Source: Rhizaria sp. SCN 62-66
Lineage: Eukaryota
Length of the DNA: 64,000 bases
Assembly (NCBI GenBank): GCA_001724265.1
Contig: MEDY01000112.1
Location: 1 to 64,000, forward strand
Reading direction: 5' to 3'
A program made the translations under genes and the position numbers. Shown here piece after piece: positions 17,201-64,000 of this stretch. How positions within the stretch are numbered: the first letter of the stretch is position 1; every line of letters starts with the position of its first letter. Under the pieces are notes generated by a model. It made no database searches and was not told the origin of the DNA. It worked only from the letters and a program-made list of their open reading frames with translations.

Positions 17201-20200
17201 CAGGGTTCGGCGCCTCATCTTGTCCAGGAGGAAGGTTGAAGGCAGGGCAGATGTATGACTCACAGCGCGTCGGCTCCGCGGTCCACAGTCCCGTGGGTAG
17301 GCACTCGATGATGGAGTTGACAACGTCGGTGAACGAGAAAGGCGCGGGACACGAGAGCGCCAGCACCGTGCCCACCAAGAATCCTGCTCCGTACTAGTCT
17401 CTTACAAAGCCTCCGCGGCGGAACGAAGCCAACGGCAGCGGTTTAGTAGCCGTGGAAGTCTCCCCGGCCAGGGGGTCTGTGCAGTGCACGGGCACACATG
17501 GCGTCAGGGTCGACCAGCCGTCGGCGCGGCACACGATGTCCTGCACGGCCACGTAGCGCGAGGACTCGCACGTCACGTGCGCGCGCGAGCCCTCGAGGGT
17601 GTGGCGCGTCTCGCATGAGGGCGATGAGTAATACACATATGCGACAGGTGACACAATCGGCAACGGTCCACAGTCATAACGAGGCAGACACTCGACGAAG
17701 TCCACGCTCCATGACGTGCCAGCGGTCGAAACAGCCGCCGCAGACACCGCACGCGGACGCGCCGCGGTGACACGTGCTTGAGAGGTGGGGTTGCTATTGC
17801 TCAAACTAGAGAGTTGCTCCGCAGTGTCGAAAACAATCGGCGCGAGCGTGTCGAGCGCGTTGACTACGTCGCTAGCGACACGGTTGCAAGTGATGGGCGT
17901 GGTGACCGAGGGCTTAAAGGCAGACGAGGTACACTTGGGCACGACGAACGAGCCCGGGATGCGGCTGTCCGAGTATGACACAGAGCCGCCGTCGATCGCG
18001 GGGAACTCGACGCATTGCGCCGTCGGCGAGCACTGCAGCGGCAGCGCAGACTCCACCACAGTCACGGTTTTTGTGGCCTGCACGACCATCAGGTCCTCGC
18101 TTTGCTCGCTTGCAGCTGCGTCTTCACCGGCACTCATAGGAGTGACACCGGAGTAATAGGCCGTCCAGCCCATAGCGGTACAGTTGAGCGCGCTCGCAGT
18201 TCCGGCCACAGGGGTGAACCAGGTCCTGCAGCCCAGCGTGGCCAGCGTGCCGAAGGGGTGCGACGTGCGCTGCGCGTCATACGACGACGTAGCGACCATC
18301 TGCGTGCCGACAAACGACACAACCAACGGCAGCGGCGGGCACGCGGTGGTGAAGAGACACAACCCTGCACGAGGTACCGCGCCTAGCAGCTCCAGCGACA
18401 CTTGCGAGACCAACACGGCTTCCCAGGTGCCAGCGCTGCCGCACTCCAGCACCTGCTGCGCAACGGCTAGGGAGTCGACGACTGCTGTTTCCGAGCGGCA
18501 CGCGTACGTCGCGCGCGCGCCGACAGGATAGCCCGGTGCGGGGCGAACCTGGTACACCGCCCCGTCGGTCCCCGCATCGCGCACAGTCACCGTCATGGTC
18601 TGCGGTGCCTGCGGCGGGGGCTGGCAGAATACGCGTTCACAGGCGGGTCTCCGGCCGTACCACAGCCCATCGGCAGCGCACTCGAGCGTGGATGAGTCGG
18701 CGACGTAACCGACCGGACAACTGACCGTGACCTCCGAGCGGAAGCCCGGGTACCCCGAGGCGTGCTTGTATGAGCTCACAGCGGCTGTCACGATGGACGC
18801 GATCGCGCCGTGCAGACGGCAGGGCTCGCCCAAGTCGCATTCGTCGTGCGGTGCGGTGGCGTTCCAGGCCGCGCTCGGCTGGTCTCCGAGCCCGCCGGGC
18901 GGCACGACGACACGGGAGGACAGCACGTCGCCGTTGTCGTCGAGCTCATAGAGCACCTCTGTCACGTGTGGACACTGCACCGGCACGCACAGAGGCACGA
19001 CACCGTGCCACTGCCCGTCCGTCAGACACTTCAGCGTCGAAAGCGTGCCCTCCGGCGCGTCAGGGCACGTGTCGCTGCCCAGCGCAATAGACGGGTCGAG
19101 GTCGTAGCCTTGCGCGCAGGATAGATGCAGCGAGACCGACGCGGATGGGTACTCGCGCGGAACGTCGAGCCGCGCCGACTGTTGCGCGACAATAAAGCGC
19201 GCCTTGAGTTCTGGCAGCACGTCCTCGCACTGCGGCACGACGCACTGCAGCACGCTGTCGGCCAGCGGGCCGGAAAGCACGAGGTCGCCCGTCGCGGGGT
19301 CGCGCAGGCGCCACACGCCGGTCTGCAGGGTGGCATTCCACGGCGCTTCATCTTCCACGCACTCGTACGTGCGCTTGGCGTCGGTTGCTGGCGCGGCGGG
19401 CGTGGCACCAATCTCGCTCACACAGGTGACGCGCACCGTGGTGGCAATAGGGAAAGACCCGCCTATCGCGGGCTCAGTGGAGTAAGCAAGGCCCACGCCA
19501 TCGATCGCGAGCGAGGTCGCAGTCGTGTTGACCCCAAACATAAGCGCGGCCGACAGACACATTGGCGTCGTCGTGCACTGCGGAGGCTCCTCGTCCCAGG
19601 AGCCGGAGCTGGAGCAGCGGCGCACGAGGGAACCACCGACGTAGTGTGTGTGCGGCGCGCATTCGTATGTGATCATGGACTCAACGAGCGGATACGATGC
19701 GATGTTCTGATTGCCATCATGCTCGGACACCGTTACAATTGTGTTCGACACGGTGCCTGGCAGTTCGCAAGCTGCAAACGTACCGTTGACAACGGGCACG
19801 CAGAGTCCGAGGAGGAAAGAGGACGCGTGGTCACTCTCCCACTCCGCCGTGGCGCCCTTCTGAATGCACTTCCACGACACTTCGTGGTCATCGCGCCCTG
19901 GCGCACGCACGGCGTCGTAGCGGCAAATGCCGCGCAGCACCGTCCCAAGCGGGTAGCCCGTCGTGGCAGTGAGCATCGGGTTTTCCCACCCGCCGATGAG
20001 CGTATGATAGATCTCTGTCGTCGTATACACAGAGCTGTTGACGGAGGGTGGCAACGGACACTCTGCGCGAACGCAGTTGAAGTTGAGCACATTGTCGGCG
20101 CCGACCCACACGGGTGCGTCGGTATGCGTGACCGAGGGCCGCAACTCACACGTTGCAAGTAGATTCGCGTTTCCAGCAGGCACAAAGCCCGACTCGCAGG

Positions 20201-23200
20201 TGTACCGAATTCTAGTCCCCAGCGGGTAGTTCTTGCTGGGGTTCGTCGCCGCCATGACTTGGTTCGACAGCAGCAGCGCGTCGGCGTGGATCAGGATCGC
20301 GCTGTTGGTCACCGCTGGCCGCGGGGGCACGCCGCAGCCCGTATAGAGCGACGGCGGCGCGGTGCCGCAGGCCAGGAAAAGCCCCACCCAGGCGCCGACG
20401 GGGGAGCAGTAAATGACACCGGGGCGGAAGCTCAGCGGATCGTCGCTTGAGTCGACATCGCTCACAAGAAGCGCGAAAGCAACATTAAACGAAGAGTTTG
20501 TTGTAAGCGAGGACATTCCACTGGTAGCGCGGCGCAGGCGCTCGATTTTGCGGCTAATGCCTGTCTGCCTCAAAACAGGGCGCTCACTCTCATTAGCAAT
20601 ACCCTCGTCGACGTTTCCGTCGTTCAAGTCATCACTGTTGCTGGTGGAGTCAGGGGCAGCGCTCGGCAGCTCCAGCGCGACACTGCCGTCCTCGGGCAGC
20701 GGCGCGCATGTGAGCAGCGTCGAGGCGCCGACGATCGGGTACGAGTAGGCCCCGACCTTCATCGGGGCTGATCTAATCAGGTTGGACATGGTGTTGCCGA
20801 CGTGCAGACACGCCATGTTCGCCGGCGCGGTCTGGCACTTGAACTCTGGCGGATCAAGCTCGATGTCGCCCAGCCCCGTCGGCGTGGGCGCGTCCCAGGA
20901 ATGCGGCGCCAGCGCGAGCAGCGACGCGTTTGTCCACATCGCTCCTGCGCCGCCGAGGCCGGGGGAGACGCACGTCATCCACAGCGAGCGCGGGGATCGC
21001 GGCGACGCGTGCATGTCGGTGTCACAGCTCAACACCACGGAGGCGCCGACGGGCGCGACGTCGGGGAACTGGCCCCCCGCGCCGGTCCACGGCCGCGAGA
21101 AGGTGCCGCTGGTGCGCACGACGACGACGCCGGCGGGCAGCACGGAGCGTGCGCACTGCAGGTCGAGACACTGCGCGAGCTGCGTGGCGTTGTACTTCCA
21201 CTGGCGGGTCAGCTCGTCGCACTGCAGCGAAAGCCACGCCAGATCCGCGGGCCGCGACGGGTTGCGGCAGCGCACCGCGACAGTGCTGCCGGGGCCCGCC
21301 GAGATCTGACTGGCCGGCAGGGTGTCCGCCTCTGTGTATTGGACGCCAGGGACAGGGGCGTACGGCAGCACCTCGTGGTGCACGGACATGATCGTGGTGA
21401 GGAGCGGGCAGACAGGTGCCACGCATGCGTAGTCGCGCGCCTCGTTGGCCCACGTCCATCTCCCAGTCTGCCCGTCGCATACGCGGTACAGCGGCTTCAC
21501 CGACAGTGCGTAGGGCATGGGCGCATCAGACGTGCACGAGTAGCGCGCAACGGTGCCCATGTCGAACGTGCCCGCAGCGGCCTCGATGTCAGCGTCGCTG
21601 TGTAGGATACCGCCGTCGACGTCGACCGCGTCGGTAAACATGTCGATCTGCACGAACTGCGGCGTCAGCGTCTCGCCGTTCTCGATGTTATCGGGCGCCA
21701 ACGGCTGCTTTGACGTAGAGCCCAGGGTAAGCTGCCCGCAGCTGTAGCGCGACGTGCAGTTGGGCGGGACGCCGCGCCAGGAGCCATCGTCAGCGCACTC
21801 GAGGTACGCCTGCCCGCCGTATGTGCCCGCGGGGCACTGAAGCGTGATGCGCGAGCCCAGCGCGGGGTACGTGACGTCGGAGTTTTCGGGCTGCGTCAGC
21901 GAGGTGACGTAGCCCTTGAGCGATCCGGCGATATCCTCGCAGAAGGTGGTTTCGCAGACAAGCTCGTCAGCAAGCTCGGTGCGTGTCTTGGACCAGTAGC
22001 CCACGTCGGACACGCCGTCGTGCTAGCACGTAAAGTTCACGTGGCGGTTCACCTCTGGCGTCGTGAAGGTGGCCCAACTGACCCGCGACTTGAACGGGCA
22101 CTGGTAGTACACGTGCGTGCCGAAGGGCCACTTGCGGATCAGAAACCAGAACGTAGAGCCGAGTCCGATCGGCACCACGGGCTTGGGCCCCAGGCCGTCG
22201 TCCTCGTCTAGCAGCGTCGCGTACGGCACCATGCCTGCGTACGTCACCACGGGCAACGAGCCGCACGCAACGGGCACGCACGTCGGCAGCGAGCCAACCC
22301 ACAGCCCGTCGGCGCCGCACGTCAGCTGCGTGAAGGCCGGCACGAAGCGGCGCTTGCACTTGACGTGCAGCACCGAGTTGTACTGAGGGAACGGCACAGC
22401 GTCCGTGACGTTGCTAAAGAACATACTCGGGGGACCGAAGTCGAAGCGGTAGTTGCCAGTGAGCCCGTTATCATAGGAGCAGCGCGGGCGCACGGGCTCG
22501 CACCACAGCGTCGCGTCCGCCACGACGGGGGACGCCGTCAGGGCGCCGCCGGTCCCCGCAGAGAGCGCGGCGGCGTCGGCGGCAGGAGTGATGCGGACCC
22601 ACCGCGCCGGGGTGCCGGGCTCGGGTTGCGCGCACTGCGCTGCGACCGCACCATCGCCGTCGAAGAGACGCGGCACGCCCTGGGCCGAGAAGACCGACGC
22701 GGGCGCAAAGCCGGGCGCGCAGCGCAGGTGCACGCGCGCGCCCACGGCGGCCACGCCCCCGGGCGAGAACGCGGTGGGCGTGGGGTACGTGATCTGGTAC
22801 CGCTTGAGCGGGTAGTCCGTGGCTGTGGCATCGCTGGACGGCAGCATGAGCAGCTGCCGCGCGAGCGCAGTGGTCATCACCGCGCACGTCGCGGGCTTGC
22901 AGTAAAAGTTCTTCATCGTCGTGCTGGGGATCGCGTCGGGCGGCACCGTGCCGGAGTACGCGGGCACCTTGTTGGGCACGGCCGTCGAGATCCACTTGGC
23001 GAAGGTGAGCCCCGTGGAGCTCTGCACGGCCTCGACGCAAGTGTCCGAGACCGTGATCGCAGGCAGCGACTCGCCAAACTGGTCCGCGGCGTAGTAGCCA
23101 GCGCGGCACTGCGCCGAGACCGCGGAGCCGGGCATCACGCGCACCTCCAGTCGCGGGTCCGCGAGGCGACCCAGCCGGTCGCCCATGAGCGGCGCCGCGG

Positions 23201-26200
23201 GGTCCGTTTGCGGCACGACGGCCGAGCCGTTGTAAACCATGGAAGTGTAGACGGCGCCCGCGGAGAGCGTGACCACCGCGCCCTCGGTCTCGAGCGCGCC
23301 AGAGTGCGCGAGCTGCAGCGGCAGGCGGCACGTGCGGCGCGGACACACGGGCACGGTGTCGCTGCCCGTGGCGTTGAGCGGCAGCGCGGGCTGCCAGCGG
23401 CCAGCGTCGGTGCACACGTGCGACGAGGCCATCTCGTATCCGGGCTCCAGGCAGTAGATTGTGAAGTAGCTGCCGACGAGTCCGTGACTGCGGATTGTTG
23501 CGGTCGGCGCGGCGCGCTCGAAGGCGAGCTGCGACACGGGGTCGACGCCAGACCACGGCATCTGCGTCACCAGCGGGCACGTCACTATGGTGCACGTCTG
23601 CGTCGACGCGATCGTCACGTTGTTCCACAGCGGCAACACATCGAGGAAGTCGTCGCCCTCGCGCGTCTCCGCGGGCACGCGCTCCCAGTACTCGCCCACC
23701 TCGGTCGTGCGCTGCGGGTCCAGCCGCAGCGCGCCGCGGCCGCACGAGCGCCACACCACGTCGGAGCCGTTGACGTCGAACGCGTCCCCGGCGTTAGCAC
23801 ACGACTGCAGGACGAAGGAGCCGAGCGGGTAGTGCTCCTGGTCGGCGTCGCGCCATGGCACCGACATCTGCTGCTGCAGCTCGTCGTCGTCGCTGTTGCC
23901 GCCGCTGACGCTATTGCTGCCCTCAGCGTCGGGCAGCCCCGTGATGCGCGGTGCGAGAAACGTGAGCCGCGTGAACATGGGCTGGTGCACTGGCAGCAGG
24001 CAGACCGAGTCGGCCCGGCACTCGGTGCCCTGCGCCGTCCACACGCCGTCGAGGCACGTGATGACGCCCGGGACATCGGGCGTGAGAGACACGTAGTGCG
24101 CCGGACACTTGGTCGTGACGTCCGTGCGCAGTCCCGACGACGTGAGAGCCGACGACACGACCGACACGGACATGATACGCGCCGTCTTAGGTTTGGCCCA
24201 CTCCGGCAGATGCAGGCATTCGCTCGGAACGCACTGCGGCAGCCCCACGCCGCGGCCCAGCGTCAGGTTCGTCTCCACGGCGACCCACGCGCCGCGGCGG
24301 AAGCCCGCTCCGACGGCGGCCGTGGCTGCCTGCGCCTCGGCCGTCTCGACGGAGGCCTCGACAGCCGCGGCGGCGGTGGCGTTGATCGCGGTTTTGGAGT
24401 CAGGCTCACATTCGACATGCGCGTACCCGCACCACGCCTCGCCGAAGGCGCGCGCGCGCGGGGCAGCGCGCGCGCGGCACTCAAAGCGCGCGGCCGAGGG
24501 CAGCGGCGGCAGCGTCGAGTACTGCATGGCCAGTCCGCCCAGCGGGCACGAGAAGGCGACGACAGTGCCCAGTGGGTAATGGCGCCCGCGCAGCGACAGC
24601 GCCGCAGTCGAAACAACCTCAGCGGCGACTGCGGCGGTGTCGTGCTTGGGCTGCGCGCCGGGGTAAATGGGTCGCGCGCTGAAGACGGTGCGCAGACCCA
24701 GCGTGGAGGTGTAGGCCTCAGGGAAGCTGTCGCACACCACCGTCAGGCACGTCGCGCACATCACAAGCGCGGTGCGCGCCATCGCGTCCGTCGCGGTCGC
24801 CGGCAGCGTCGCCGTGAGCGCCTGCAGCGCCGCCGCGGCGGGCTCGGAGCCGAGAGAGGTGGGCACAGTCGCGGGGACCGAAGATGAGATGAGGCGCCAC
24901 TCGCCGGGGCCCGTGGCCGAGGCGTGGCACTGATAGGTCGCCAGCGGTCGCGCCGTGGTGTTCGACGTGGCGGCGTTGCGGCAGGCCACGTGCGCAAAGG
25001 CGCCGTCGCTGTAGACGCGCGGGCCGTCGATCAGCCCGCCGCCGACGCCGGGGAGGTCCTCGGCGCTGATGCCGTCGAGCTTGCCGTCAGCTGCAGCGGC
25101 GGCGGCGGCGAACACGGCGGCCGCGGCAGGGCTTTCGCGGACCGAGTCGAGCACAGGCGGCGGCAGCACGCCCTCGTGCGCCGAGGGCACGGCGTAGGAC
25201 GAGTAGTGCAGCCGCATGTGGGGCGGCAGCGCGCGCTCCAGAGGGTGCGGGGAACACTGCGCGGGGCAGCGCGCGTGAACGACTGGCCGCAGCGCAAAGG
25301 TCGCCGGCAGCGGCGTGCCCAGCGACGTGTTGGTTGCCGTCGCAGCGTCGCGCAGCTGCGTGAGCGCGTGCCAGCGGCCCTTGCGGCACGTCATGGCGAC
25401 GGCAGTGACCGCCACAACGTCGTCAGGGTCAGTTGCCGACTCTCCAAACTCGTCGTCTCCGCCCTGAGTCTGGGAAAGGGAGGCAGAGGGCACGGCGGGA
25501 ACGAGTGGGGCACTGCCTGACAGTACGGCGGTGAGATTCACGAGCGCGGCAGCCTGGGCGGCCGCATAACCACTGTTAACAACCCCAGTGCCGCCGTTGC
25601 CGTTGCTGTTGCTGTTGTCACCAGTAGAGGCGCTGCCGTCGCCCTGCAACACGGGGAATAGTCTTTCGGCGTCGCGGAGAGCTGGTCTCAACTCATGCAC
25701 CAGTCCGTCGCCCGCCGGCAGTGAGTTGGGGCTGCCATCAGCGTCGTCGTCGTCACCGAACGACGAAGGGTCCGTCGAGAGCACGTAAAGGTCCGGCGCC
25801 GCGTCATGCCAACAAGAAAAGGTCACCACGGTGCCGTCTAACGCAAAGGCAGACGTGCGCCCCAATGGCGTGCCGTCCAAGGCGGAGATCGCGGCGCGGA
25901 CGAGCTTGGGCTCGGCGGAGGCGGTCGAGATGTTGAAGTACGCCGCAGCGGCAAAGACAGTGAACGGGTCATTGCAATGCTGCGAAAAAATCCAGGGGTC
26001 GAGGTTGGCGTCCTCCGTACCGCTCTCAAACAGGTGTTCCGCGTTGGAGCGCGGATCCAGCAAGTCTAAATGCTAGGGCGCAACCTCAAATCTGCCGCCG
26101 CACTTGTCGCCGAGCAAGACGCCCGACGGCAGAGCGGGCGCTGAGGTTGTTCCTCCTTGCGCCTCCGCAGCCGCCGGGCCCGCTGATAGCACGACCAACG

Positions 26201-30724: not shown

Positions 30725-32575
30725 ATGGCGTCTCCTTTGTCCCTTGCGTCCCGCCTCAAGGTGGGTCGTATGGACCTTGCCCACCGTCTTGTACTTCCAC
30801 CGCTGACCCGCTACCGCGCGACTGCGGAAACGCTGGCCCCGAACGACATGATGATCGAGTACTACAAGCAGCGCACCACCAAAGGAGGCCTCCTTATCTC
30901 CGAGGTACGAAAAATCATCAGCAAATCAGAGCCTAAGACGTCAAATGCCACGCTAAGAGATAAAAGATGCGAGTATAACGTTATTCCATCAATTCATATT
31001 GATTGGCTCTAATCTGCTTGTGATTAACATTCCTATTTTAACCATACCGTTTCTGCTCGCGAACACTCTATACCCCAGGCGACCGCCATTTCGCCCGAAA
31101 CCATTGGCGCGAACAACGCCCCGGGCATCTGGACGCCCGCGCAGGTTGCCGGGTGGAAGCAGGTGACCTCCGCGATCCACGCTAAGGGCGGCTACATGTT
31201 CTGCCAGCTCTGGCACGTCGGCCGCGGCGCGCACGACTCGTTCAATGCGCACCACCTCGTCCGGGGCTCCGGATATCAAGTCAACCGCTCGGCGTCCGAC
31301 GTCCCGCAGGAGGGCACGACGCACATGACGCTCGACGGGACGGCGCTGGCGCACGTGAAGCCCGTGCCGCTGACGCTGGACGAGATCGCCCGGCTCCGCG
31401 AGGACTACACCAAGGCGGTACGTGACAATGATGATATCTTGATTGCCAGAGTGACTCGTGTCAAAATTCATGTCTAGTATATGAAACTATATTTTTCGAT
31501 AATGATAGTATTCTTCAGTTTGGTCATTTTCTGCTCACATTTATAATGCCATTTATGTCTTGTGTCAACCTCACCCGTGACTGGTTTGTGACTCTTGCTT
31601 CCCGTTCGCTAGGCCAAGAACGCGATCGAGGCCGGGTTCGACGGCGTAGAGCTGCACAGCGCCAACGCCTACCTTCTTGACCAGTTCCTCAACTCGGAAA
31701 CGAACCACCGCACGGACCGCTATGGCGGCTCGGTCGCCAACCGCACGCGTCTGCTCGATGAGGTGCTCGGCGACCTGTGTAGTGCGGTGGGCCGCGACCG
31801 CGTCGCCGTGCGCCTGTCGCCTCATCGGAACGCGCCGCCGATGTTCTTCGGGCTTACGGACGCGGACCCCGTGGTGACGTACCGCGCTGCGTTCGCCACG
31901 GCCGCGCGGCACAAGCTCGCCTACACTCACGTCAGCGAGTCGAGCTACGACCCGACCGTGCCGGGCGCTGCCGAGGCGGAGATGCAGTTCCCCCGCGCTG
32001 CCGCCGACCTTTTCCACGCCTCCTACGTCACCGATCCCACCGACAGCTCTACTAACGCCGACAATAGTGCTGTGAAGAGGGCCAGCCCCGTCATCGGCGC
32101 AGGCGGCTATACCCCCGTCTCGGCGGCGCGCGCGGTCGAGACGGGCGTGTACGACCTGGTCGCTATGGGCCGCTTCTTCATCAGCAACCCGGACCTGCCG
32201 CACCGCGTGCTCAACGGGCTCCCACTGACCGACTACGACCGCCACCAGTTCTACACCCCTGCCGCCGCCGAGGGGTACATCGACTACCCGACCTTTGCGC
32301 AAGTGTGCGCCGCGCTGGGCGCGCGCGAGGAGGACTACCTGCCCGCCAAGCGCGGCGCGGCGGCGGCGGCGCGGGCCGCGGGCGGCGGCGCGGTCGCGGT
32401 CGCGGCGGCCGAGGCCGAGGAGCGGCAGGAGCGCGCCGCGCTCGACGCCAAGATCGACGCGCTCGTCGCGCGCCACGCGCAGAGCGGGGCCAAGTACCCG
32501 CTCGTGTCAAGCAAGAGCATCGGCGTTAGCACTTCGTCTGCAGCCCGCAAAAAGACCGCTGCCGCGGCGATGTAA
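30725..32575 (+). CDS. Old Yellow Enzyme family NADH:flavin oxidoreductase (alkene reductase), 3 exons, 493 aa
   Basis: Exons 30725-30904, 31079-31417, 31613-32575; GTACG..AG introns 30905-31078 and 31418-31612. Motifs HRLVLPPLTRYRA, GGLLISE|ATAIS, PGIW, FCQLWHVGR, AGFDGVELHSANAYLLDQF, NHRTDRYGGSVANR, GRFFISNPDL, FYT..EGYIDYP. Ends TAA. Confidence 0.96.
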
Positions 32576-39387: not shown

Positions 39388-39865
39388 GTCTCCTTCTCCT
39401 GAGGGGGAGCAGAGGCGGAAGGGTGGGAGGGCGGTGAGATTAGACACAGAAGATCGGGACTTGGAGAAATACAAAAGAAATTATATATACAAGCGCTCAG
39501 ATTATTTTAAAGCATCGCAGCGAATTAAGCTTTTGACGAACACATAGTGAGTTGTTCGAATCCCCGTTATGCCCTTGTCCCCTTGCTTTCAGAGCCAGCG
39601 ACTGGCTGGCAGCGGCCGACCCCCCACCAAGCGACCAGGCAGCATGGCAGCCGGCCTTCGAGAGCCTGCGGACATGAGCTGCAGCGAGCCCAAGTCTCCG
39701 ACGATACGCATATCGCTTGCTTTCCCGTGCTTCCTAATGTTGTTGTTGCTATTTCCTTTAATTCTTTATCGTCATGTTCTCACCTTCCCCTCCTACTCCA
39801 CCCATTTCCCCACCCGCTGCACACAGCCTTCCCCGACACTCCCCCGCCACACAAACGCCCCCGCG

Positions 39866-47101: not shown

Positions 47102-50100
47102 TCACTTCTTCATGGAGGAGAGCAGCGGGGGCATGCCGGGCGCGGGCGCCGAGGGGCCCGACGCCGCGGCGGGCGCGGGCGAGGGCGTGCCGCGCGGCTG
47201 GTTGACCGCGGCCGAGGGGAGAAACATGCTCGCCTGCGCCGCTTGTTGCGGCTGATACCCCAGCGCAGACGCGCGCCGCGCGCCGGGCGGGGCGCCGCTG
47301 GTCGCGGGAGTGGGCGCGATCACCGCCACGGCGGGCGCGGGCGCGGGCGCGGGCGCAGCAGTAGCGGCGGCGGCGGCGGCGGGCGCGGCGGCGGCGGGCG
47401 TGGCGGTGAGGCTGGAGCGGCGCGAGCCCGCGGCGGAGGTCGGCAGCGGCGCACCCGCGGCCGTGGCAATGGCGACGGGCGCCTTGCCGGCGACTGCGGG
47501 CTGCACCAGTGAGGTCGTGCCGCGGCGGTGGCGCGAGAGCTGCTGGTGCTTGGCCTTGGTGGTCTCGGCGACCGAGACAATGGCGCCGCTCCAGGCGAGC
47601 ACGTCCTCTTCGTCCTTGAATTCGAAGGCCTGCTCGCGGACGAAGTGCGCGGGGTCGAACCCGGGCGCGCCGGCGCCCTCGTCGTCGGCGCCGGTCGCGC
47701 TCACGCTGGAGCCGCAGGGGACGTCGAGCGAGCCCGCGCCAAACGAGGCCGAGCCGCCGGCGGAGAAGCCGCCCGAGGGCGCGCCCGAGAGACCGGCGCT
47801 GGCGCCGGCGCCCGGCGCGGGGGGCGTGAAGACGAGCTGGAGCCCCCACATGTCTGCCTCGCGGTGCGAGGTCGACACGCGGCCCAGTCCCGGGTCCGCC
47901 GAGAGGCCCGTGTTGCGGAGCGCGGCGACGGAGCGGCCGAAGGGGCGCACGCGCAGCTGCGTGACAGGCAGCGCGCCGCGGAAGCCGTACTCGGGCGAGG
48001 TCCAGAAGATGACGTCGTTGCAGAGGAAGATGCGGGTGTCCTTGGAACGCGCGCCTTCGACGCGGCGCACGAAGTCCTCCTTAACGAGCAGCCGGTTGGG
48101 CGCAAGAATGTCGGCCGACTTGCCAGGGGCCTGGCGGATGAGCTCCTGGATCGCGGACAGCCGCGAGCGCGCCTCGGTTTCGTGCTGGAACGCGTTGATG
48201 GTGCGCGCGACGGCCTCAACGGCGCGCATCGCCTTCTCGATGAGCTCGAACTCGCGCCGCAGCGCCGCCATCGCCTCGGGGCTGGTCCGCTCGATGGGGC
48301 CGCCCGCGCGCGGGGTCGCCGCGGGCGTCTGGTTGATCCCGGAGCCGCCGTGGACGGCGTGACCAGCGGTGGCGTTGATGCCGGGCATAGGGCCGAGCGT
48401 GGAGAGCGAGAGCTGGAGCGGACCCAGCTCGCCGTCGGAGCCCACCAGGTCGGAGAAGGGGTCCGCCACGCTGTTGCTGTTGCTGTCGCCGCCGCTGTTG
48501 CCGGCGGTGGGGCCGCGCTTGGAGACGGGCGAGACGGGCGTGGACACTGCGCCGAGCGATGCGAAGGGGTCCTCCTCGGCCGCCACGGCGTCGGCGATGA
48601 CGTTGCGTTGGCAGCCCTTAAGCTCCTTGAGCAGCAACACGTAGCGCGGGAGGCGCTGGATGGGAATGATGAGGTAGTCGGCGACGGTCTTGCCGCAGAA
48701 GGCCGGGTTCGCCTGCACGCGCTGCACGAACGCCTGCAGCAGCGCGTTGGTCGCCAGCCCGTCGAAAAAGGCCTTGACACACTTCTCGTAGTAGGAGATG
48801 TAGGGTTTGTAGAGCTTGAAGTAGGGGGCGAGTGTGATGAAGGTTGACGCGACGCCCGTGCCGTCGGGCAGCGACTTGCGCAACATGTCCAGCACAGAAT
48901 CGTGCAGCATCGCGATCGGCCCCACCTGCGAGAGGAAGAACTTGAAGTCGGGGTCGATGTCGGGCATCTGCGCCAGCTGCTCGAGCAGCGGCGTCACGAA
49001 GTGCGTCAGCAGGATCCGCAGGTTCTTGATGTACGTCTCCTCGGTGGAGATGACCTCGTTGCGCACGCGCTCGCGCTTACTCTTACTCTTGCTCAGCCCG
49101 CCCTCGACGCTCTCCGTGCTCACCAGGTTGCTGTTGCTGCTGCTCGACAGCGCGGCCGCGGCCGGCGGCGCGGGCGACACCGAGCGCTGCGCACCGCTCG
49201 CGCTGTTGGCGGCGGTGGCGGCGAGCGCGGAGGTCATGGTCAGCGTGCCCGGGTTGGGGTTGGGCGTCCGGTTGCGCGGCGGCACCGACGGCGGCGGCGA
49301 CGCCGGCGACGGCCCCCCCGCGCCCGCGCTCGCGCCCGCGCTTGCGCTGGGGGACGGCGACGGCGCGCGGCCCGGAGACGTCACACCAGCAGCACTGGCG
49401 GCGGCGTCGGCGTGGGGCCCGCCGGCGACGGACGCGCGCGGCGGGCGGGCCGGCGGGGCGCGCAGAGTGCCGTTCGCGCCAGCGGCCGCGTTGTTAGCAG
49501 CGGGCTTGGTGACGACGACGACGGCGGGCGCCTTGTGCTCGCTCTCCTTCACGCCACCGGAGGCAGCGCCGCCGGCGGCAGCGGACGCTGAGGCGCCAGA
49601 GGAGGCGGCGAGCTCGAGGGCCTTAAGCTTCTCCTCGAGCGCGCGCTTCTCGTCCTCGACGCGGCGCCGGTCGTCCTCGGCCTTGCGCTGGGCGAGCTCC
49701 ATTCGGCGCTTGTCCTCCTCCATCGCGGCCTCCATCGCGGCGAGGCGGCGGCGCGTCTCGTCCATCTCGTGCGTGTGCGCGCGCGCCGCCTGATCCAGCA
49801 TCGCCTTCATGTCCACGGTCGAGATGCGCGTCAGAGACGGCGCCACCAGCGCCTCCCCGCCCTCGGTCACCATCGCCGGCACAGCGGGGCCGTGCGCGCC
49901 GTGATGACCGTGAGCCGCGGCGGCGGCGGCGGAGGATGACGGCGTGGCGGCGGGGGTGACCGCCGCGGCACCGGCGGCGGCCACCTCGGCGGCGGCGGCG
50001 GCGGCGGCGGCCGAAGCGGGGGTGGGCGCCGCGCCGGGGTCTGCGACGACGAGCCACTCGGCCGCGCTGCCGAAGATGTCGTCCTCGCTCAGCTCCTTGA

Positions 50101-52921: not shown

Positions 52922-54083
52922 TCCGCCTGACGACTGACGACGACGACGACGACGACGCTGACGCTGCTTATGAAGGACGGTGAGGACGACGACGAGGACG
53001 ACGAGGGAGCAGTGTTGTTAGCGACGGCGTGTACGACGACGACAGCAACAACAGCAGCAGTAGTGCCGAGGTGGGTGGATGAAAGAAAAAGAGACTGCGA
53101 TGGAACGCGGCGAGAGTGCGAGTCAGAGATGCCGAGTTGCAGACGCCAGAGTGACAGCAAGCGAGAAAAGGTAGAGGAGAGCGAAAGGCCAATTGTGTGT
53201 GTGAGGGCGTGAGATAGGGGCGTGCAAGAACAAGCAAAGAAGATAAAGAATTGTTCCACGGCACGGTAGACACAGCGGATTGCGTGTCATGCAGAGCGCA
53301 ACAGCGTGGCGGGGCAAAACGGCGGTGATATCTTGGCGTGTGCACGCGACTTTGTCTAAGACACGAGGTAAACCCTGACTACGGGGAGCAGAGCGGCAGA
53401 ACAACGGCGTGGCAGCAACAGAACGGCCGTGCAGCGTGTCTCGCAGGCGGTGGTAGAGGGATACCGGCGGTGGGGCGGATTGGCGAGCGGTTCGCGAAGC
53501 AGGATGACCTGAAAGAGTGCCATTTGTTGGTGAGGAGACGTCGTGTGCCTAGATTCGATGACTCACGAATAGGTACAATATCGCGCTTCTGCACAAAAAG
53601 CAATTAATTGATCTAGCTCATGCACACAAAGTACCGATGCTTGCAAGTTCTTATGTCAGCCTTACGAGAATTGCCCCGAATATTCCCCGTTTTCAAATGA
53701 AACCGAGAGAGGATCTCGGCCATGTTCGTCAGAGTCAAGGGCTGCAAGGCGTCCGAACTCGGCCGACTAGAAGGATTACTTCGGCCGGGCGGCTAGACTT
53801 CCGACTCGACCTCCCCCTCGACTGACCGACCAAGAGGCCTCCTTCTGGGGAATCATTCGACCCGTCGTAGAGCGTTCCAGAGCAGGCCAACGCATCTTTT
53901 TGATTAATGTATGGACATATATCACAATTTTCAGTTTCATACTTAGTTGATGGTCCGCTCGGACGGATGCATGGTGCGCTTTGTGCTGTCTTTTGTGGCT
54001 ACCCCTTCACCCTTTACCCTCCCTAACTCACCCTCTTCCCACCCCTTTTCTTGACCCCCCTGTTACTCTGTTCGTGCGTGTAG

Positions 54084-55983: not shown

Positions 55984-58059
55984 ATGCATGCCAGTAAAGC
56001 GCGTCTGCGCGCTGCCGTGGATCGCGTGCCGCTCAACCGTGTTGTTCCCCGTATTGTTGAGAAGGTACGTTCCCCTCACCCACACCAGTCTCCAGCCCCT
56101 CACCGTTTGCCGCTTTGCCGCGCATTAAACCCTGCTCTGAGGGTGCTTAAGAACTGTTTTTTATTTGCTCAGATAGAACACATCTATTTATACGCCGCAT
56201 GTCGGTTTTATCTCTATACTACGTCCGTTTACCTATGTATTATGAGCCTCAAAATGACCGCGAGCTCACCCACACCGCTTTGACTTTGACTTTCTCTCTC
56301 CGCACAGTGGAGCACCCAGCTCCTCGAGCGCGCCCGTGCGGGCGACGCCGACGCGATGCTGAGCGTGGCTGAGCTTCAGTTCCAGCCCGAGGGCTGGGGC
56401 AAGATCGCCTACAACCCGACCGAGGGGGAGCGCTGGGCCGAGCGCTCGAGCCTGTCTGGCAACAAGAACGCCGCGCAGAGTCTGCGCGAGATCCGCCTGA
56501 CGAAGGAGATTGTGCAGCAGAAGACTGAGCAGATTCACCGCAAGATCCTTAACGACCGCTTCGCTAGCGACAACATCGAGGAGCCCTTCGTTGGTCCCAA
56601 GAAGATCGCTAAGAGTCTGATGAAGCTCAAGAAGAAGCTCGCCGCTGCCGGCTACACCCCGCGCGACGTCATCTGGCGCGAGGCCGTCGCCAACGCAATG
56701 CGGCGCCGCGACCGGCAGCTGCTGCGCGAGACGTCGGAGCAGTACATGATCGAGTCCAACTCGGACCCGGCCGACTCGTCCATCTACTACGAGACTCCCG
56801 TTCTGCAGTTCCCGCTCAACATGCAAGCCCCCGCGAGCCTGGACGGCATGCAGCGCGCCATGAAGGCCGCGCTCGACGGTCACCTCCAGCACACGGCCTA
56901 CGACACTGTTCCGCGCCCGCTTGTGGAGCTCTTCTCCGCCGTCGACGAGGCGCCGCTCGAGAACCACTCGCCGATGGTAGAGCACGACGGCGTCTTCGTC
57001 CAGGCGCAGTACATGCCTAAGATGTCTGCGGCCGAGATCATGCGCGCCCAGCGCGAGGGTCTGGCACCCGCCGCCGTGGACCCCTCTGCGCAGACAGCCG
57101 CGGGCGCGCTCGCGGGCCCCGTGCTGCTGCCGCCCGCGCCGCTTTCGGCGCCCGCGTTGCCGCTGCCCGCCATCATGGAGCGCTACCCCGCCATCGTCGC
57201 CGCCTACGGCGTGCGCGCGCTCGCCGGCAAGACGCGCGCGCAGCTCGACGAGCTGGCAGACGTGCTCCGCGCGAACAACGACGACGACGACGCGGCGGCC
57301 GAGGGCGCCGACGCCGACGAGACGAGTGGTCTGCGTTTCACGCCGCGCGAGAAGGACCGCATCGCCGAGGCTGAGCGGCTCGAGGAGAAGATCATGGCGC
57401 TGCCCGAGGTGCGCGCCCGGTTTGCGCGCTTCGACGAGCAGACGGGCCGCAGCGCGCTGGGTGACGACGAGGCCCGTTCTCGCCGCGCCGAAGCGCGCGA
57501 GGCGATGCGCTGGGAGATCCTGCGCGCGATGCTCACCGACGATGAGATGCGGTTGGTGCTTACCAAGCCCATTGCCGAGACGGCCGTGTACCTCGAGGCG
57601 ACGATCGCCGAGGAGAACGCGCTGGACGAGGACGAGAACTCGACGCTCTTGGACCAGATGGCGCCGCTGGATCACATCGAGCGCGAGTACACGCTGCGCT
57701 GGCCCTACGCCGAGACGGGCGAGTCGGCGCAGAACGAGTTCCGCAACACGCTTGGCGACTCGGCGGACCGCCACGAGATGGATCTCACGGTGTACGACGA
57801 GCGCTTCGCGCCCACCGAGGACATCGACGTGATGCAGGGCTCTGTGGCCGACGAGGACGCCTTCGCGGGCGGCATCAACGGCGGCGCGATCGACCCCAAC
57901 GCCGACGTCATGACCCGCGCCTCGATGGCCAGCCGCGCTGGCGCCAACGGCGTCGGCACCCGCGCCGAGTGGCGCAAGCGCGTCGCCTCGGCCGCCAACG
58001 AGCGCGCCAACGCGGCGGTCACCGGCAGCGCCGCCGCGGGCCCCGCAGAGGTCATCTAA
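55984..58059 (+). CDS. Protein with one N-terminal Sel1-like repeat and an acidic C-terminus, 2 exons, 610 aa
   Basis: Exons 55984-56064 and 56308-58059; intron 56065-56307 (GTACGT..CAG). Spliced: MHASKARLRAAVDRVPLNRVVPRIVEK|WSTQLLERARAGDADAMLSVAELQFQPEGWGKIAYNPTEGERWAERSSLSGNKNA (A..GD.DA...+A......G.G...N..EG..W). Ends TAA. Confidence 0.85.
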
Positions 58060-58645
58060 GTCAGCTGCAGACAGTCGCGCTCACAGACGCGCTCGCGCCA
58101 ATGCGTATGCGTGCGTGTGCCCGCACTGCCCGTTTATGTGAACGCGCTGTGAGTGAGAGATTGACCATTCGCAGTGTAGATTTAGTGTTGGTAGTGGTTT
58201 AGGTTGTTAGGGTTGAGCTACATTTTTTACTTAGTACAACGTATAAGATAACAGTAGCACTTCCCTCGAGCACAACGGAGTACATCATCCTACCATGACA
58301 GAGCATTGCAGCGCAGAGTTAGTTCGTTTTATTCCAAACTCAAATGAGACATTCAACAAGCAAAAAACATATCTTACTAATTAAAAGAAACAACAAAAAG
58401 AACGTCGTTGCGTTCAATATAACAATAGACACAAAATATTTATTTGTCATTGCATCACCACACTCTTATGCCGCATTGAACGAAGTACTAGGTCATATAA
58501 AGCTCTAGTGTATTGTTGATCGTGAGAGTTGTAAATATATGGCCATCGAGTTCGTTGGGTGTCATGACCTCAGATGGGCACGTCCGATTTTGTGATTAAG
58601 CAGTGAATGGGGTTCAATCTAGACGAGTCTGCCTGTACAATGCAC

Positions 58646-60121
58646 TCACTTGCCGCGCCAGCCATAGAGGGCCTCCGCGTTGAAGTCATCGTCATCGTCA
58701 CTGTCGCTGTCGCCGGCATTTTTGCCGCTGCCCGGCTGCTGCGGCTTCGCTTTCCTGTCCTCCTCCTCCTCAATAGCAGCAGCAGCAGCAGCAGCAGCAG
58801 CGGCGGCGGATGCGGCGGAGGCTGACGCAGACTCGAGCGCACGCTTCGCCCGCCCGCCCGCGGCGGCGACGGCGCCGCGCAGCCTCGCTAGCCCCTGCGC
58901 GCGCTCCTCCTCCTCGCGCGCCTCCTGCGTCGCGCGCGTCGCCGCCACCGTCGCCGCCGCCAGCCCGCTCGGCGCGACTGCAGCCCACACCGCCGGGGCC
59001 GGAGCCGGTGCTGACGCGGGCGCCGCTGCAGCCACAGCAGAAGGGGCGGAGGCGGGGGGATTCTTGCCGTCGCTGCTCTTGGCGTCGTTGGCGGCAAGGG
59101 CGAGGTCGAACGCACGCAGGTCGCTGTCCTCATCCTCCTCCTCCTCCGCAGCGGCGGCAGCGGCTGAGTTAGCTCTGGCAGCGGCGGAGCCGGCCATGAC
59201 GGCGGCGGCGGCGGCGGTGGCGGCGGCAAGCGCGGCGGCGTGCGCGGCCGCCTCGGCCTCGGCGTCGGCCTCATCGCCCCACAGCGGCCGCAGCTGCGCA
59301 GCCCCGGTCTCGGCGGACTTGCTGCGGTTGTTGCTGCTGCTGCTGCTGCTGCTGTTGGGAGAGGCTGCGGCAGGGTTCTTGGAGTCTCGGCTGTTCTTGC
59401 TGCTGTTGTTGGGTACGTTTGTGGTATCATCTGTGGCGGCAATCATGACAACATCGCCGTCGGAGTTAAGCCGCCACGTGTTCCCGTCTTCGTCCACCAG
59501 CTCCACAATCTCGTCCTCATTCGAAATGCCGTCGGTGGAAGTACTGTCAGACTGGCCCTGGCTCTGGCTCTGGTTTTGACTCCGGCGCGCGGACTGGCGT
59601 GCGGCGCGGCGGCGTGCGAGTTCATGATCGATGTAATCATCGGGGTCGCCTAACCAGTCGTCAGGAACCTCGATGTCATCGCCGTCCTCGTCGTCGTCGC
59701 CGTCGTCATCATTGGCAGCTGTGGAGCCAGAGCTCGATGTGGCGGAGGTTGCTGTTGCGGGGGAAGCGATATTATCGTCGTCGTCGCTGTCGCTGTCGGC
59801 GTAGGCCGCAAAGGCGGAGATGGGAGCTGCGGGTGCAGACACATGAGCAGGAGCAGCAACAGCAGCCTTTAGAGGTGCAGGTACTGGAGCTGCAGCACGG
59901 GCGCTGCTACTAGAAGCGGACGCAGCGGGCGCGCTTGTTCCGGCGGCAGCTGCCTTCTTCTGCGCAAGCAGCGCCTGCAGCGCGGCGATTTTCTACCTGT
60001 GCATGGCGCCCGCGACGTGTGCGGGCCAGGCGGCGTCGTCGCGCAGGGCGAGCTTGCACACCACGCACGTCAGCTGGCCCGCGTCTGTGTAGCGCGCGAG
60101 CTTGTCCGTCACGCCGGGCAT
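58646..60121 (-). CDS. ZNF830: ZNF830/CCDC16-like C2H2 zinc-finger spliceosomal protein, 491 aa, with one in-frame TAG (59993-59995)
   Basis: Manual translation from ATG 60121: MPGVTDKLARYTDAGQLTCVVCKLALRDDAAWPAHVAGAMHR*KIAALQALL..., in frame with ORF 58646..59842. Matches the ZNF830 pattern AKY...GQLSC.LC.......LW..HV.GK.HREKVAEL; acidic end with WRGK resembles DWR.K. Ends TGA. Confidence 0.87.
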
Positions 60122-60408
60122 TAGGCTGCGCGGGTACGTTGAGACAACGGGGTAATTGGGGCGCAAGGCGGCGTCTTGTTGGAGTAGATAAGGGCTGTGA
60201 CAGAGGAATCAAGAGCATGGGCGTATAACGGTTAGACACGGATGAGTTTGGACAGAACTTGGACCCGACGATTCACGGCATACACAGCTTCTAAAAGAGC
60301 ATAATAACAATATAGTATATATTATATCGTGATGAATATGTGATTGTGACGGGTTCTCAAATGACGGATGTATTGTGGTGCTATGTATCGCGTAAGTCTC
60401 GAGCGCGC

Positions 60409-60879
60409 TCAGCGGCGGGCGTCCTCCTCGCCGGCCGGCGTGGTCGAGTACCGGTGGTCGGGCTGCTGGATGGGCTCATATCGCATGCCCTGGTGCTGCG
60501 GCGGCGCCAGCGACGCGGCGGGCGACGCGCCGTAGGATCGCTGCGTGGGCTGCTGGTACTGCTGCTGCGGCGACAGCGCGGGGGCGGCTGCGGGGGCGGT
60601 GTAAGGCTGGCCCGGCACGTGCGGCGGCGGGGGCTGCGCGGGGTAGCCGGGCGGCACGTAGCCGTCGCGGTACACCGTCACCACGTTTTGCTGCGGGGGG
60701 GAAGGACAAGGGCGTGGAAAGAGAAAGAGTGAGGGGACGGAGAGGGCGGGGCAGCGGCGCGGAGGAGCGGGGTCGGGGTTCGAGAAGAGTCGTACCTTGG
60801 GGCGAAGAATCATGAAGGGGATCGTCACGCCGATGGCGAGGACGAAGAATTTACCAATGTCACTAAGCACACGACTCAT
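60409..60879 (-). CDS. Small protein with N-terminal TM/signal anchor and Pro/Gln/Tyr-rich tail, 2 exons, ~121 aa
   Basis: MSRVLSDIGKFFVLAIGVTIPFMILRPK|QNVVTVYRDGYVPPGYPAQPPP...; 105-nt in-frame intron 60691-60795 (AAG|GTACGA...CCCGCAG|). Ends TGA. Confidence 0.75.
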   Translation of the reverse strand: MSRVLSDIGKFFVLAIGVTIPFMILRPKVRLFSNPDPAPPRRCPALSVPSLFLFPRPCPSPPQQNVVTVYRDGYVPPGYPAQPPPPHVPGQPYTAPAAAPALSPQQQYQQPTQRSYGASPAASLAPPQHQGMRYEPIQQPDHRYSTTPAGEEDARR

Positions 60880-61237
60880 GTTCGTAGCTGAATGCACAGA
60901 TATATCACTTGTATCACGACAGGTCGAACCATCAGCCTAGCTTGTCACTCCGCCGGTTCGATCCATCGTTCTGCTTCATGCATCGAACCAGTTTGTGGTC
61001 AGATCACATCCAACTTAAAAACTCATTTAAAACAGTCTCTAAACCAGATCAGAGCTCGAAGTATAATAATAAAGTAACTATTGTATTTAAATGTCGTTTT
61101 AAAAGCCGCACGAGGCCCTCCTCTGATCATTGTCGGATAGCTTCGTTCACACGCGTAAAGCTCGCTGATCGAGCTTGCTAATCGAGTCTCGAGAACACAT
61201 TGCACAGCTGTCGCCCTGCCGCCGTCACCCTAGGCCC

Positions 61238-64000
61238 TCACACGTCTGTGTAGAGCGAGCTGGCAAAGGGCAGCCCCCTGCGCACGGCGGCCTCGGCCTG
61301 CTCGAACTTGGCCATCAGCGCCTCGTTGCCAACCGTGCGCGCGGCGTCGACGAGCTGCAGCAACAGCTCCGCGAGGCGCCGCAGCAGGCGCACGATGGAG
61401 CCCGGGTGCGCGTCAGTCATGTTGCACACGTCGACGAACGCGGCGCCGCGCGCCCACGCGAGCACGGGCGCCGCCATGCCGTGCCGGAAGCCAGCCAGGT
61501 AGGCCGGCTTGTCCACGCGTTGCCCACACTCGGTTGACAAATCGGCGACGCGCTCGACGATGGCGCGCAGGCGCGCGACGGGCGGCGCCAGCTCGGCGGG
61601 CAGCGGGTCGCGGTCGCTGCTCGAGCGGTCCGTCTCGAACAGGACCGTGAGCAGCGCCGCCACCTGAGCAGGCTCGTACGCCGCGAACGAGTTGTCGAAC
61701 ACAAGCTCCGTCAGGACCAACTCGTCGACGGCCTCGACGTGCGCGGCGAAGCGACCCAGCACGGTCAGCATCCCGTCGGCCGTGGCGTAGCCCAGGCGCC
61801 GCAGCACGCGCAGGCGCGCCGCGAGCTCGGCCGTGAACACGTCCACCAGCTCGCCACCGCCATCGCTGCTGCTGCTGCTGGCTGAGTCGCCAGATCCCGA
61901 AGCCGGGCCAGTGAGGGCGGCGTGAGCGAGAGGGCTCGACAGCGCGGCCTGCAGCGCCGCCGCGGACCCCGCCGGACCAGAGCTCGGGGCAGTGGAGCTG
62001 GAGCTAGAGGAGCCGGCTGCGAAGCGCGCGCGCTGCTGCGCGGTGATCTGCGTGGTTTGGTTGACGCCGAAGACGCCCGACTGCGCGGCCTCGGTCAGCG
62101 CGGCCGCGCGGCGCAGCGCGTGTGCCAGCGAGCCCGCGGTCGCGGCCGAGACGAGGCCATGCGCGGCCGCCAGCGCGTCCAGCGTGCTCACGGTCACTGC
62201 ACTGCTGCTGCTGCTGCTACTGCTCACGGTCACTGAGGTGGCGGCTGTGGGCGCGGGCAGCTGCACGTCTGTCTCACCGGCATTGGCAGCCGCACCGTCA
62301 TCGGTAGCACGAACGCTCATGTTCATGGGGGACTTCTTGGCGTCGTTCTGCTCTGCGTGTGCCTCGGCAGACTCGACACCCGTGGTCCCACAAGCATCAG
62401 CATCAGCGGCAGCTTGTGCATTAGCATCCGCGCTGTCAGCCTCGCGGAAACGCTTCTCCCTCGACGCAACAGCAGCCACAACACTAGCGGTATCACTAGC
62501 ATCATGCGCACTCGCATTGACACGCGAGTCAACCGCTGTTGCAGTCGCCGGCGTCTTGCTGAGAGCAGGCACGCGCACAGTCGCAAACGGCTCAGCCAGC
62601 CCCTTGCCCTTAGCCCCGCTCCCGCCCTCAGCCCCAGCCCCGGCCAGTGCGCCGACCAGCGCGCCCCCACTCTGCAGCGTCACTCGGCCGTGTCCAGCAA
62701 GCGCGGCGCGGACCTTGCGCGCGAGCGGGACCTCCCTGGCCGCCGCTACAGCCGCGGCCGCGCGCGCGAGGGCCGCGAGGTTGAACCCGCGCGGGTCGAC
62801 GCCCATATCATCGAAGGGCGAGAGCAGCGGCAGGGCGCCGGGCAGCCCCGCGGCGGCGTGCGCGCGGTGCGCCAGCGCCACAGCCTCGAACACAGCGGCC
62901 TGTTCGGCGGCGCCGCGGACGTCCGCGGGCAGCGCCACGCGCACGGCCGAGACCTTGTGCAGCATCGGCAGCGACACGCGGACGACGTCGTAACGCACCG
63001 AGGAGGCCTGCGCCGACTGCGCGCGCGCCTGCAGCTGCGACAGACTCAACCCTGACACCGCCGCATCAGCGTTGGCGATTGCATTAACGGCAGCGCCAGT
63101 GTTTGCAGTGGCGTGGAACGCAGAGGCTGCGAGCCGCTGCAGCCAGCCGGGCTCGACCGGGAGCGGCACTGTCACCGCGGGCGGCGCGGGGCCCGCGTCG
63201 AGCTGCTGACTCGAGGGTGGCGGCGCGACGGTGATCGTACCAGCCACGGGCACAAGCACGTCGACGTCGTAGGTCCAGGGCTCGAAGCGCTTCCAGACGG
63301 TCAGCACCACGGCCCAGCCGAAGTCGCGGCCGGTGTGCGCGAGCAATGTCGCCGCGTCCGCCGCCGACCGCGTGGAAGCCACGTTCGAGCCAGTACCAGC
63401 GCTGTTGCCGCGCACTGCGCGAGCAGACACAGACGATGTTGCATCATGTTGTGTCGAGGGGACGTCGCCAGAGTTGTCAGTATTGCTGCCGTCCTCCTCC
63501 TCATCATCTTCGTCAACGTCGCTGTCACTGAAGCTGTTTGCGGCGGCGCCAGCGGTGGCGGCGCGGCCGGCCTGCGCGCGCCAGAGCTCAGGCGCCGTGG
63601 CCGAGGGCCGCAGCATGCGCCACTTGCCGCCCATCACGGCCGCCACCTCCTCGCGCATGCCGCGCCGCCGCCGGTCCCCGCCGCCGCCATTGGCGCCGCC
63701 GGTCAAGGCTGCGTCCTAGCCGAGCGCGAGACCCAGCCCGATGCTGGCGCTGGCGGCCGAGGCCAGGTCGGCCACCGCGGCGGCCGCGGCGTCGGCGTCG
63801 GCCGACGCGCCCGCAGGCACCGCCGCTGCGGCCGCTGCGGCGGCGGCGACGGCGGCGGCGACGGAGAATGCGCGCGGCGGCGCGGGGGGGCCGAAAGAGT
63901 CTAGCACTGGCTCTAGCCCCCAGCCGTCGCAGCCCGCCCAGCCGGCAGCCTCGGCGCGCGCGCGGCGAGACCGCTGCGCCGCCGACAGGACCGTGCGCGG
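61238..64000 (-). CDS. MTR4: Mtr4-like (Ski2-family) exosome RNA helicase, C-terminal part (arch/KOW + DSHCT); in-frame TAG at 63716-63718; 5' end outside the window
   Basis: DFGWAVVL (KOW); ELAARLRVLRRLGY...GRFAAHVEAVDELVLTELVF; AWARGAAFVDVCNMTDAHPGSIVRLLRRLAELL...GN..L..KF....RRGLPFASSLY. Frame is open to the window edge except for one TAG. Ends TGA. Confidence 0.93.

Follow-up and report, generated by a model that had tools for sequence, protein, structure and literature searches.

The TAG at 59993-59995 of the window (by which we mean the whole 64,000-nucleotide stretch of DNA analysed here) is best explained as a translated codon within an intact ZNF830-family gene, in a host that would use TAG as a rare sense codon, most likely for glutamate. 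We put the probability of this explanation as a whole at roughly 0.8. The gene is also the only place in the window where the amino acid specified by a TAG can be inferred.

The ZNF830-family gene and its reading frame

The open reading frame lies on the minus strand, where translation from an ATG at 60121 proceeds to a TGA at 58646-58648. Its relevant features are:

58646..60121, minus strand: ZNF830-family coding sequence of 491 codons plus a TGA stop, with one in-frame TAG (from the open reading frame, homologues and BLASTP)
59999..60067, minus strand: U1/matrin-type C2H2 zinc finger, C19-x2-C22-x12-H35-x5-H41 (ligands invariant in the alignment)
59993-59995, minus strand: the in-frame TAG, codon 43 (CTA on the plus strand), two residues past the last zinc-binding His
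59978..59992, minus strand: K-I-A-A-L, start of the post-finger helix (from homologue columns and the predicted structure)
59648..59668, minus strand: VPDDWLG, a diverged form of the [LIV]P.[GD]FFD family motif, downstream of the TAG (from a motif scan and the P0126 alignment)
58649..58666, minus strand: YGWRGK, the terminal WR motif of the family, with the TGA directly after it (W[RK] stands near the end in 21 of 43 homologues)

Up to codon 43 the minus-strand translation reads MPGVTDKLARYTDAGQLTCVVCKLALRDDAAWPAHVAGAMHR, and the TAG is then followed by KIAALQALL, which confirms the first description of the site. A further 448 codons are open beyond it, starting with KIAALQALLAQKK and ending before the TGA with FNAEALYGWRGK (i.e. 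...ALYGWRGK-TGA). The C-terminus, DDDDDFNAEALYGWRGK followed by the stop, combines an acidic stretch with the terminal WR motif, as in the ZNF830 family, and the protein is very rich in Ala/Ser/Asp low-complexity sequence. A stop at codon 43, as the earlier sequence-only reading had pointed out, would leave a 42-residue peptide and orphan the C-terminal WR motif; we find that it would orphan the mid-protein motif as well. Since the finger lies before the TAG, and VPDDWLG and WRGK come after it, the two parts belong to one protein.

On sequence comparison the gene is a member of the ZNF830 family. A HMMER search of 1.84 billion representatives, run with the N-terminal residues 1-63 and an X in place of the TAG, found 257 matches at E<=1e-3, named ZNF830 proteins included, and the best 150 of the 257 were sorted. 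Among these 150 were 105 multi-finger proteins matched in several stretches, one short match within a 1065-aa protein (P0067), the window's own 42-aa stub (P0003), and 43 single-finger proteins of 70-463 aa, each matched in a single N-terminal stretch at E-values from 2.4e-12 to 7e-5. Our alignment consists of these 43 single-stretch homologues; P0015, a two-stretch match with the look of a duplicated gene model, was excluded. When 19 of the 43 homologues were looked up, eight proved to be named zinc finger protein 830(-like), from a barnacle, a bee, amphioxus, a sponge, the lycophyte Selaginella, the liverwort Riccia and two JGI records. Others among the 19 come from Creolimax, Salpingoeca and Copromyxa, which are the only named protist relatives among the homologues looked up and show 23-27% overall identity. 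C19, C22, W32, H35 and H41 are invariant in the 44 aligned sequences. As a separate observation, the 90% cluster of P0003 includes the 402-aa P0155, which looks like a clustering artefact; we rejected P0155 as a relative of the window stub, the protein being unrelated despite the shared cluster.

The homology continues on the far side of the codon. The closest full-length relative among the listed matches, P0126 (450 aa), aligned with residues 5-221 in BLASTP (E = 2e-29) without a gap at the TAG site, and reads IPEDYFG opposite VPDDWLG. In the columns that follow the TAG, position +2 is V, L or I in 40 of the 43 homologues and position +5 is L in 33. Judged from these columns, family similarity runs on beyond the TAG into K-I-A-A-L, as had been claimed earlier, and the BLASTP match with P0126 crosses the codon. 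A W[RK] pair was found within the last 16 residues of 21 of the 43 homologues, the others being mostly truncated records.

ZNF830 proteins (CCDC16 / Omcg1) are single-finger nuclear proteins, a family associated with splicing or DNA repair. The window protein shares with them the [AV][KR]Y..G.L.C lead-in at the N-terminus, one C-x2-C-x12-H-x5-H finger, the post-finger helix, the acidic stretch and the terminal WR. It differs from them in its greater length (491 aa) and Ala/Ser/Asp low complexity, in the divergence of the FFDD motif to VPDDWLG, and in having a TAG in the gene where most members carry Glu.

The Pfam zf-met profile matched the N-terminal 57 residues at E = 0.03 (15.1 bits, under the gathering score of 21.2), and the whole protein gave no Pfam family at E<=1. 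Sequence searches of the PDB with the whole protein and with the N-terminus returned low-complexity matches to sigma factors or nothing. A word-indexed protein search with residues 1-70 gave no matches at near lengths, and at shorter lengths just two stubs cut at the TAG. Searches for related loci found none for P0001 in metagenome contigs and none for P0126 in genome contigs.

Stop codons and introns across the window

The window has a GC content of 0.56-0.75 per 2 kb, with long open reading frames on both strands and AT-richer spacers between them. In 12 gene models with 17,971 coding codons we count five in-frame TAGs, no TAA and no TGA; the five, at 26073, 22023, 17394, 59993 and 63716, agree with the earlier count. 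Besides codon 43 of the ZNF830-family gene they are:

26073..26075, minus strand: codon 71 of a giant Sushi/REJ gene (without a homologue at this place)
22023..22025, minus strand: codon 1421 of the giant gene, right after the third Cys of a CCP-like module
17394..17396, minus strand: codon 2964 of the giant gene, in a Sushi module between its Cys1 and Cys2
63716..63718, minus strand: in a low-complexity insert of an Mtr4/Ski2-like helicase gene (unalignable to a homologue)

Homology on both sides of an in-frame TAG is found in the ZNF830 gene and in the Sushi/REJ gene. In the latter, a Pfam Sushi match (E = 1.2e-4) begins three residues past the TAG at 17394, and the diverged CCP-like module at 22023, searched alone, had no Pfam hit.

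Gene ends give the complementary picture. For the 12 gene models and the small gene at 60409, the 13 ends comprise six TAA, seven TGA and no TAG. GC falls behind all 13 of these stops, and stands at 0.56-0.84 on either side of every in-frame TAG. If only TAA and TGA are taken as stops, a single open reading frame of 8,459 codons spans 1020-26399 on the minus strand and contains three TAGs. Because it comes directly after the ZNF830 terminal motif, TGA is a true stop. As a sense codon TAG would occur about 0.3 times per 1000 codons, or, if it is Glu, at about 0.6% of Glu codons. We found no tRNA genes within the 64-kb window.

Several of these genes are unusual in their own right. In the giant open reading frame at 1020-26399 (minus strand, about 8,400 codons, 25 kb), a signal peptide is combined with dozens of Sushi/CCP modules, transmembrane segments, a REJ domain and an extended tail in which poly-Q, poly-A and poly-S abound; the product is a surface receptor unusually large for a protist. 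The public record of the helicase at 61241-63715 (minus strand) is an 806-aa fragment that starts past the TAG (P0158); P0159, 74% identical to the helicase across the DSHCT region, may come from a sister species. A 1,971-aa protein at 47105-53017 (minus strand) brings together ENTH, RanBP2-type zinc ribbons and RhoGEF, an uncommon combination of domains. At 39551-46453 (plus strand), a 2,301-aa protein has a small MMR_HSR1/YqeH-like GTPase core, with low-complexity sequence for the remainder; by its domain content this is a normally small GTPase, greatly expanded.

That TAG is read as a sense codon seems to us very probable from this pattern. Were it an ordinary stop, the ZNF830 gene would be a null allele, a pseudogene or a gene expressed through occasional programmed readthrough, and the remaining TAGs would have arisen by accidents of the same sort. 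The great rarity of in-frame TAG (5 in 17,971 codons) and the coexistence of a GAG allele with the TAG form in one run, X4 (see below), would suit that account. Against it, the five interruptions are TAG without exception, never TAA or TGA, and the reading frames behind them are intact; three of them fall within one otherwise open reading frame of 25 kb; the 448 codons past the ZNF830 TAG have stayed open and have kept the family motifs; and TAG ends none of the 13 genes, although its use would be expected in GC-rich genomes. Nor is the TAG form confined to the window, being present in a contig of run X3 and in the stub peptides, which come from three contigs each. We therefore regard the ordinary-stop explanation as very improbable. 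An assembly error at the TAG is likewise unlikely, the X3 contig, which belongs to a different study, being identical to the window over 59365-60670. A dual use of TAG, as both stop and sense codon, may occur, the absence of TAG from 13 gene ends being a small sample.

An open frame in this window can contain a non-coding TAG, as shown by the sequence of the Old Yellow Enzyme (Oxidored_FMN) gene at 31028-32575 (plus strand), and the TAG within its intron is the reason that an intron had to be considered at the ZNF830 TAG too. The two introns available for comparison are:

31417..31612, plus strand: intron of the Old Yellow Enzyme gene, 196 nt, GC 0.38, GTACGT...CGCTAG, containing a TAG (from the split Pfam match)
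60691..60795, minus strand: putative 105-nt intron of a small membrane-protein gene, GTACGA...CCGCAG (from reading frames only)

The first of these splits the Oxidored_FMN profile into 55-159 and 158-341. If the ZNF830 TAG lay in a short spliceosomal intron of this kind, it would never be translated. The organism does have introns (31417-31612 and probably 60691-60795), the TAG stands in a donor-like sequence, CAG|GTAGAA, and from this donor 24 frame-keeping GT..AG pairs can be drawn. Every other donor, however, removes zinc ligands, and the frame-keeping introns that start from this sole finger-sparing donor delete at least 21 codons, among them the conserved K-[VIL]-A-A-L. The would-be intron has a GC content of 0.61-0.67 and lacks a pyrimidine tract, its donor does not resemble GTACG[TA], with which both comparator introns begin, the variant found in X4 reads AAGGAG there, without a GT, and the P0126 alignment is ungapped across the site. 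An intron over the TAG is accordingly the least credible of the explanations that we weighed. No RNA library was among the runs listed as containing this gene, and in a poly(A) metatranscriptome, X13, none of the contig pieces shown extends over 59993. Contigs from X13 do cover the putative intron at 60691-60795, unspliced, and run into the upstream spacer (60640-61164), so that either DNA or pre-mRNA is present in the library or the 60691-60795 intron model is wrong. Since these contigs are unspliced over the putative intron and extend over intergenic DNA, X13 is uninformative about splicing at 59993.

The probable amino acid at codon 43

To place the residue in its structural setting we used an AlphaFold2 model of residues 1-63, calculated with the 43 homologues (mean pLDDT 86.7). 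It consists of three short strands and two helices, the finger helix at 29-36 and another at 45-60, with H41, R42 and X43 in the turn between the helices. In the model the residue at codon 43 is in the turn just before helix 45-60, outside the finger helix. The codon had been described as part of the zinc-finger helix; it does come directly past the zinc-binding His, but is predicted to sit in the turn between the helices. Because the N-terminal ends of helices favour acidic and amide residues, the predominance of E, Q and D in the TAG column fits this position.

Among the 43 homologues the TAG column holds Glu in 23, Gln in 8, Asp in 6, Ala in 2 and His, Lys, Thr and Asn in one each, with Leu, Trp, Tyr and Ser in none of the 43. 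A second alignment gave identical counts, and collapse of the homologues to 34 clusters left E 17, Q 7 and D 4. The column favours Glu over Gln by about 2.8 to 1. P0126 reads H-K-E-R at this place, i.e. Glu, and P0118, a partial fish record, reads WPAHILGKQHKEKVAELK, again with Glu in the TAG column. The column is less uniform in the seven homologues whose N-terminus is of the ITD.L[AV][KR]Y type, with E 2, Q 3, H 1 and T 1. The sequence-only reading had preferred Glu or Gln over Leu or Trp, a preference that the ZNF830 alignment upholds, and the animal ZNF830 sequence that it cited, with Glu opposite the TAG, agrees with database sequences such as P0118.

A further indication comes from sequence variation, for which contigs of four runs were compared over 56000-64000. 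One contig of X4 differs from the window at 59990, 59995 and 59997, so that its coding strand reads AAG-GAG-AAG (K-E-K) against AGG-TAG-AAA (R-TAG-K) in the window; the change to GAG is flanked by one conservative and one synonymous change. This variant is represented by one contig at a depth of 4.3 of 7.4, with the site 39-46 nt from the contig end, and a difference confined to one contig of depth below 5 could be erroneous. In X4 a second haplotype or a close relative co-occurs with the window form, with a cluster of differences at 56953-56987. The GAG found at the same codon tilts the choice towards Glu on the sequence evidence. X4 has 25 further coding differences among those listed, 12 of them synonymous and 13 amino-acid replacements, so that the change from GAG to TAG need not be silent.

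With these data we consider Glu the probable reading of codon 43. Gln is distinctly less likely, yet it is the alternative to be taken most seriously: TAG would then be a sense codon for Gln, and the GAG of the relative an ordinary conservative replacement between Glu and Gln. Near-cognate reading of UAG in eukaryotes, and most of the known UAG reassignments, give Gln. It is the second commonest residue of the column (8 of 43) and the commonest in the seven closest N-terminal relatives (3 of 7), and with 13 of 25 other X4 coding differences non-synonymous a replacement is not unlikely. In the portions of PMC11687900 available to us, reassignments of UAG only go to Gln in four lineages, to Leu in two and to Ser in one. 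Weighing against Gln, Glu exceeds it in the column (23 versus 8, and 17 versus 7 after collapse), the sole variant seen at the codon is GAG and not CAG, and the closest full-length relative, P0126, has Glu. The position of all five TAGs outside Q-rich tracts is a weak point against Gln: with 116 of 696 Gln codons in Q-rich surroundings, five misses would be expected with a probability of about 0.40 under Gln. The earlier remark that the TAGs avoid the poly-CAG tracts is therefore true, but its weight as evidence against Gln is negligible. Any other amino acid, e.g. Leu, Ser, Tyr, Lys or Trp, is very unlikely. UAG-alone codes with Leu (the rhizarian exLh) and with Ser (Scotinosphaera) are known from the parts of PMC11687900 at hand, and the residue is unconstrained at four of the five TAG sites; against this, Leu, Ser, Tyr and Trp occur in none of the 43 homologues at the column and Lys in one, and the variant codon is GAG.

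Our odds for Glu and Gln are our own weighting of the column, the X4 variant and a prior that favours Gln. The amino-acid reading draws on a single column and a single variant only, because just one of the five TAG sites aligns to conserved homologues, and the caution voiced at the outset, that one site cannot decide the amino acid, still holds. The other four sites were considered as evidence for the amino acid and rejected, the two Sushi-module sites being at variable positions, the helicase insert being unalignable and codon 71 having no homologue.

The proposed host code and its comparison with known nuclear codes

The host is an uncultured, GC-rich, intron-poor eukaryote of bioreactor and wastewater metagenomes; sequence of the window is present in bioreactor and wastewater runs from several studies. 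We postulate that in its nuclear code UAG is a rare sense codon and UAA and UGA still terminate, and that codon 43 is most likely Glu, with Gln second, at a site that is preferentially acidic or amide in the family. Decoding could be performed by a dedicated Glu-type tRNA with a CUA anticodon, and eRF1 would presumably no longer recognise UAG. The full proposition, that an uncultured GC-rich non-ciliate eukaryote of wastewater bioreactors has captured UAG, and no other stop codon, for Glu and still terminates at UAA and UGA, is a tentative one, to which we give slightly less than even odds. If the Glu reading is true, the rarity of the codon (about 0.6% of Glu codons) suggests an early codon capture, and a GAG/TAG polymorphism at the level of strains would still be visible in the environment.

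Few codes give UAG and UAA different meanings, and those that do bear directly on the capture of stop codons, since UAG can be taken over by a tRNA with a CUA anticodon while UAA is left untouched. Should our proposal be correct, a non-ciliate, GC-rich eukaryote would add a UAG = Glu code in which the two other stops remain. Its reassigned codon, still very scarce and perhaps polymorphic with GAG between strains that co-occur, would allow the course of capture to be studied directly. There is a practical side as well. Gene callers cut the proteins of the host at TAG, and the ZNF830 product is found in the databases only as stubs of 42 aa and 57 aa (P0003 and P0157 are peptides cut at this TAG, each recorded from three contigs). 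Gene calls cut in this way, the stubs and the 806-aa helicase fragment among them, imply that the host proteome is mis-annotated in public metagenome resources.

The nearest parallels are the codes that reassign UAG alone. According to the sections of PMC11687900 and PMC5304391 accessible to us, UAG alone is Leu in the rhizarian exLh and in TARA phyllopharyngean ciliates, Gln in Iotanema, Hartmannula, Trochilia and Protocruzia, and Ser in Scotinosphaera. PMC11687900 treats the combination of a sense UAG with a stop UAA as expected if UAA is not decoded by the tRNA whose anticodon is CUA. The window shares with these codes, as so described, a UAG that is probably sense and a UAA that is a stop. 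It departs from them in the amino acid, Glu being indicated here and absent from their set of Leu, Gln and Ser. Its GC-rich sequence (0.56-0.75 per 2 kb) is not that of a ciliate-style genome, in contrast to the UAG-alone ciliates, and it uses TGA about as often as TAA for its stops, whereas those ciliates end 87-98% of their genes with UAA (PMC11687900, in the portion available). With respect to the UAG = Gln codes of Iotanema, Hartmannula, Trochilia and Protocruzia, the one informative column of the window has Gln in 8 and Glu in 23 of 43 homologues, and the variant is GAG, not CAG.

A second group of codes agrees in the probable amino acid. In the same sections of PMC11687900 and PMC5304391, UAG is Glu in peritrich ciliates and Blastocrithidia (where UAR = Glu) and in Oligohymenophorea sp. 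PL0344 (where UAA = Lys), and UAG is probably Glu in the window as well. All of these, as described there, have UAA as a sense codon, whereas in the window TAA has no in-frame occurrence in 17,971 codons, ends 6 of the 13 genes and is followed by a drop in GC; UAA as Glu, the feature of the UAR = Glu codes, was not encountered in the window. A literature search of article full texts turned up, within the text that it covered, no code that pairs UAG = Glu with a UAA stop. If Glu is right, UAG = Glu with UAA and UGA as stops would, set against the codes in the accessible parts of these sources, be a new code variant; if Gln is right, the host would be a new member of the UAG = Gln group, from a GC-rich lineage.
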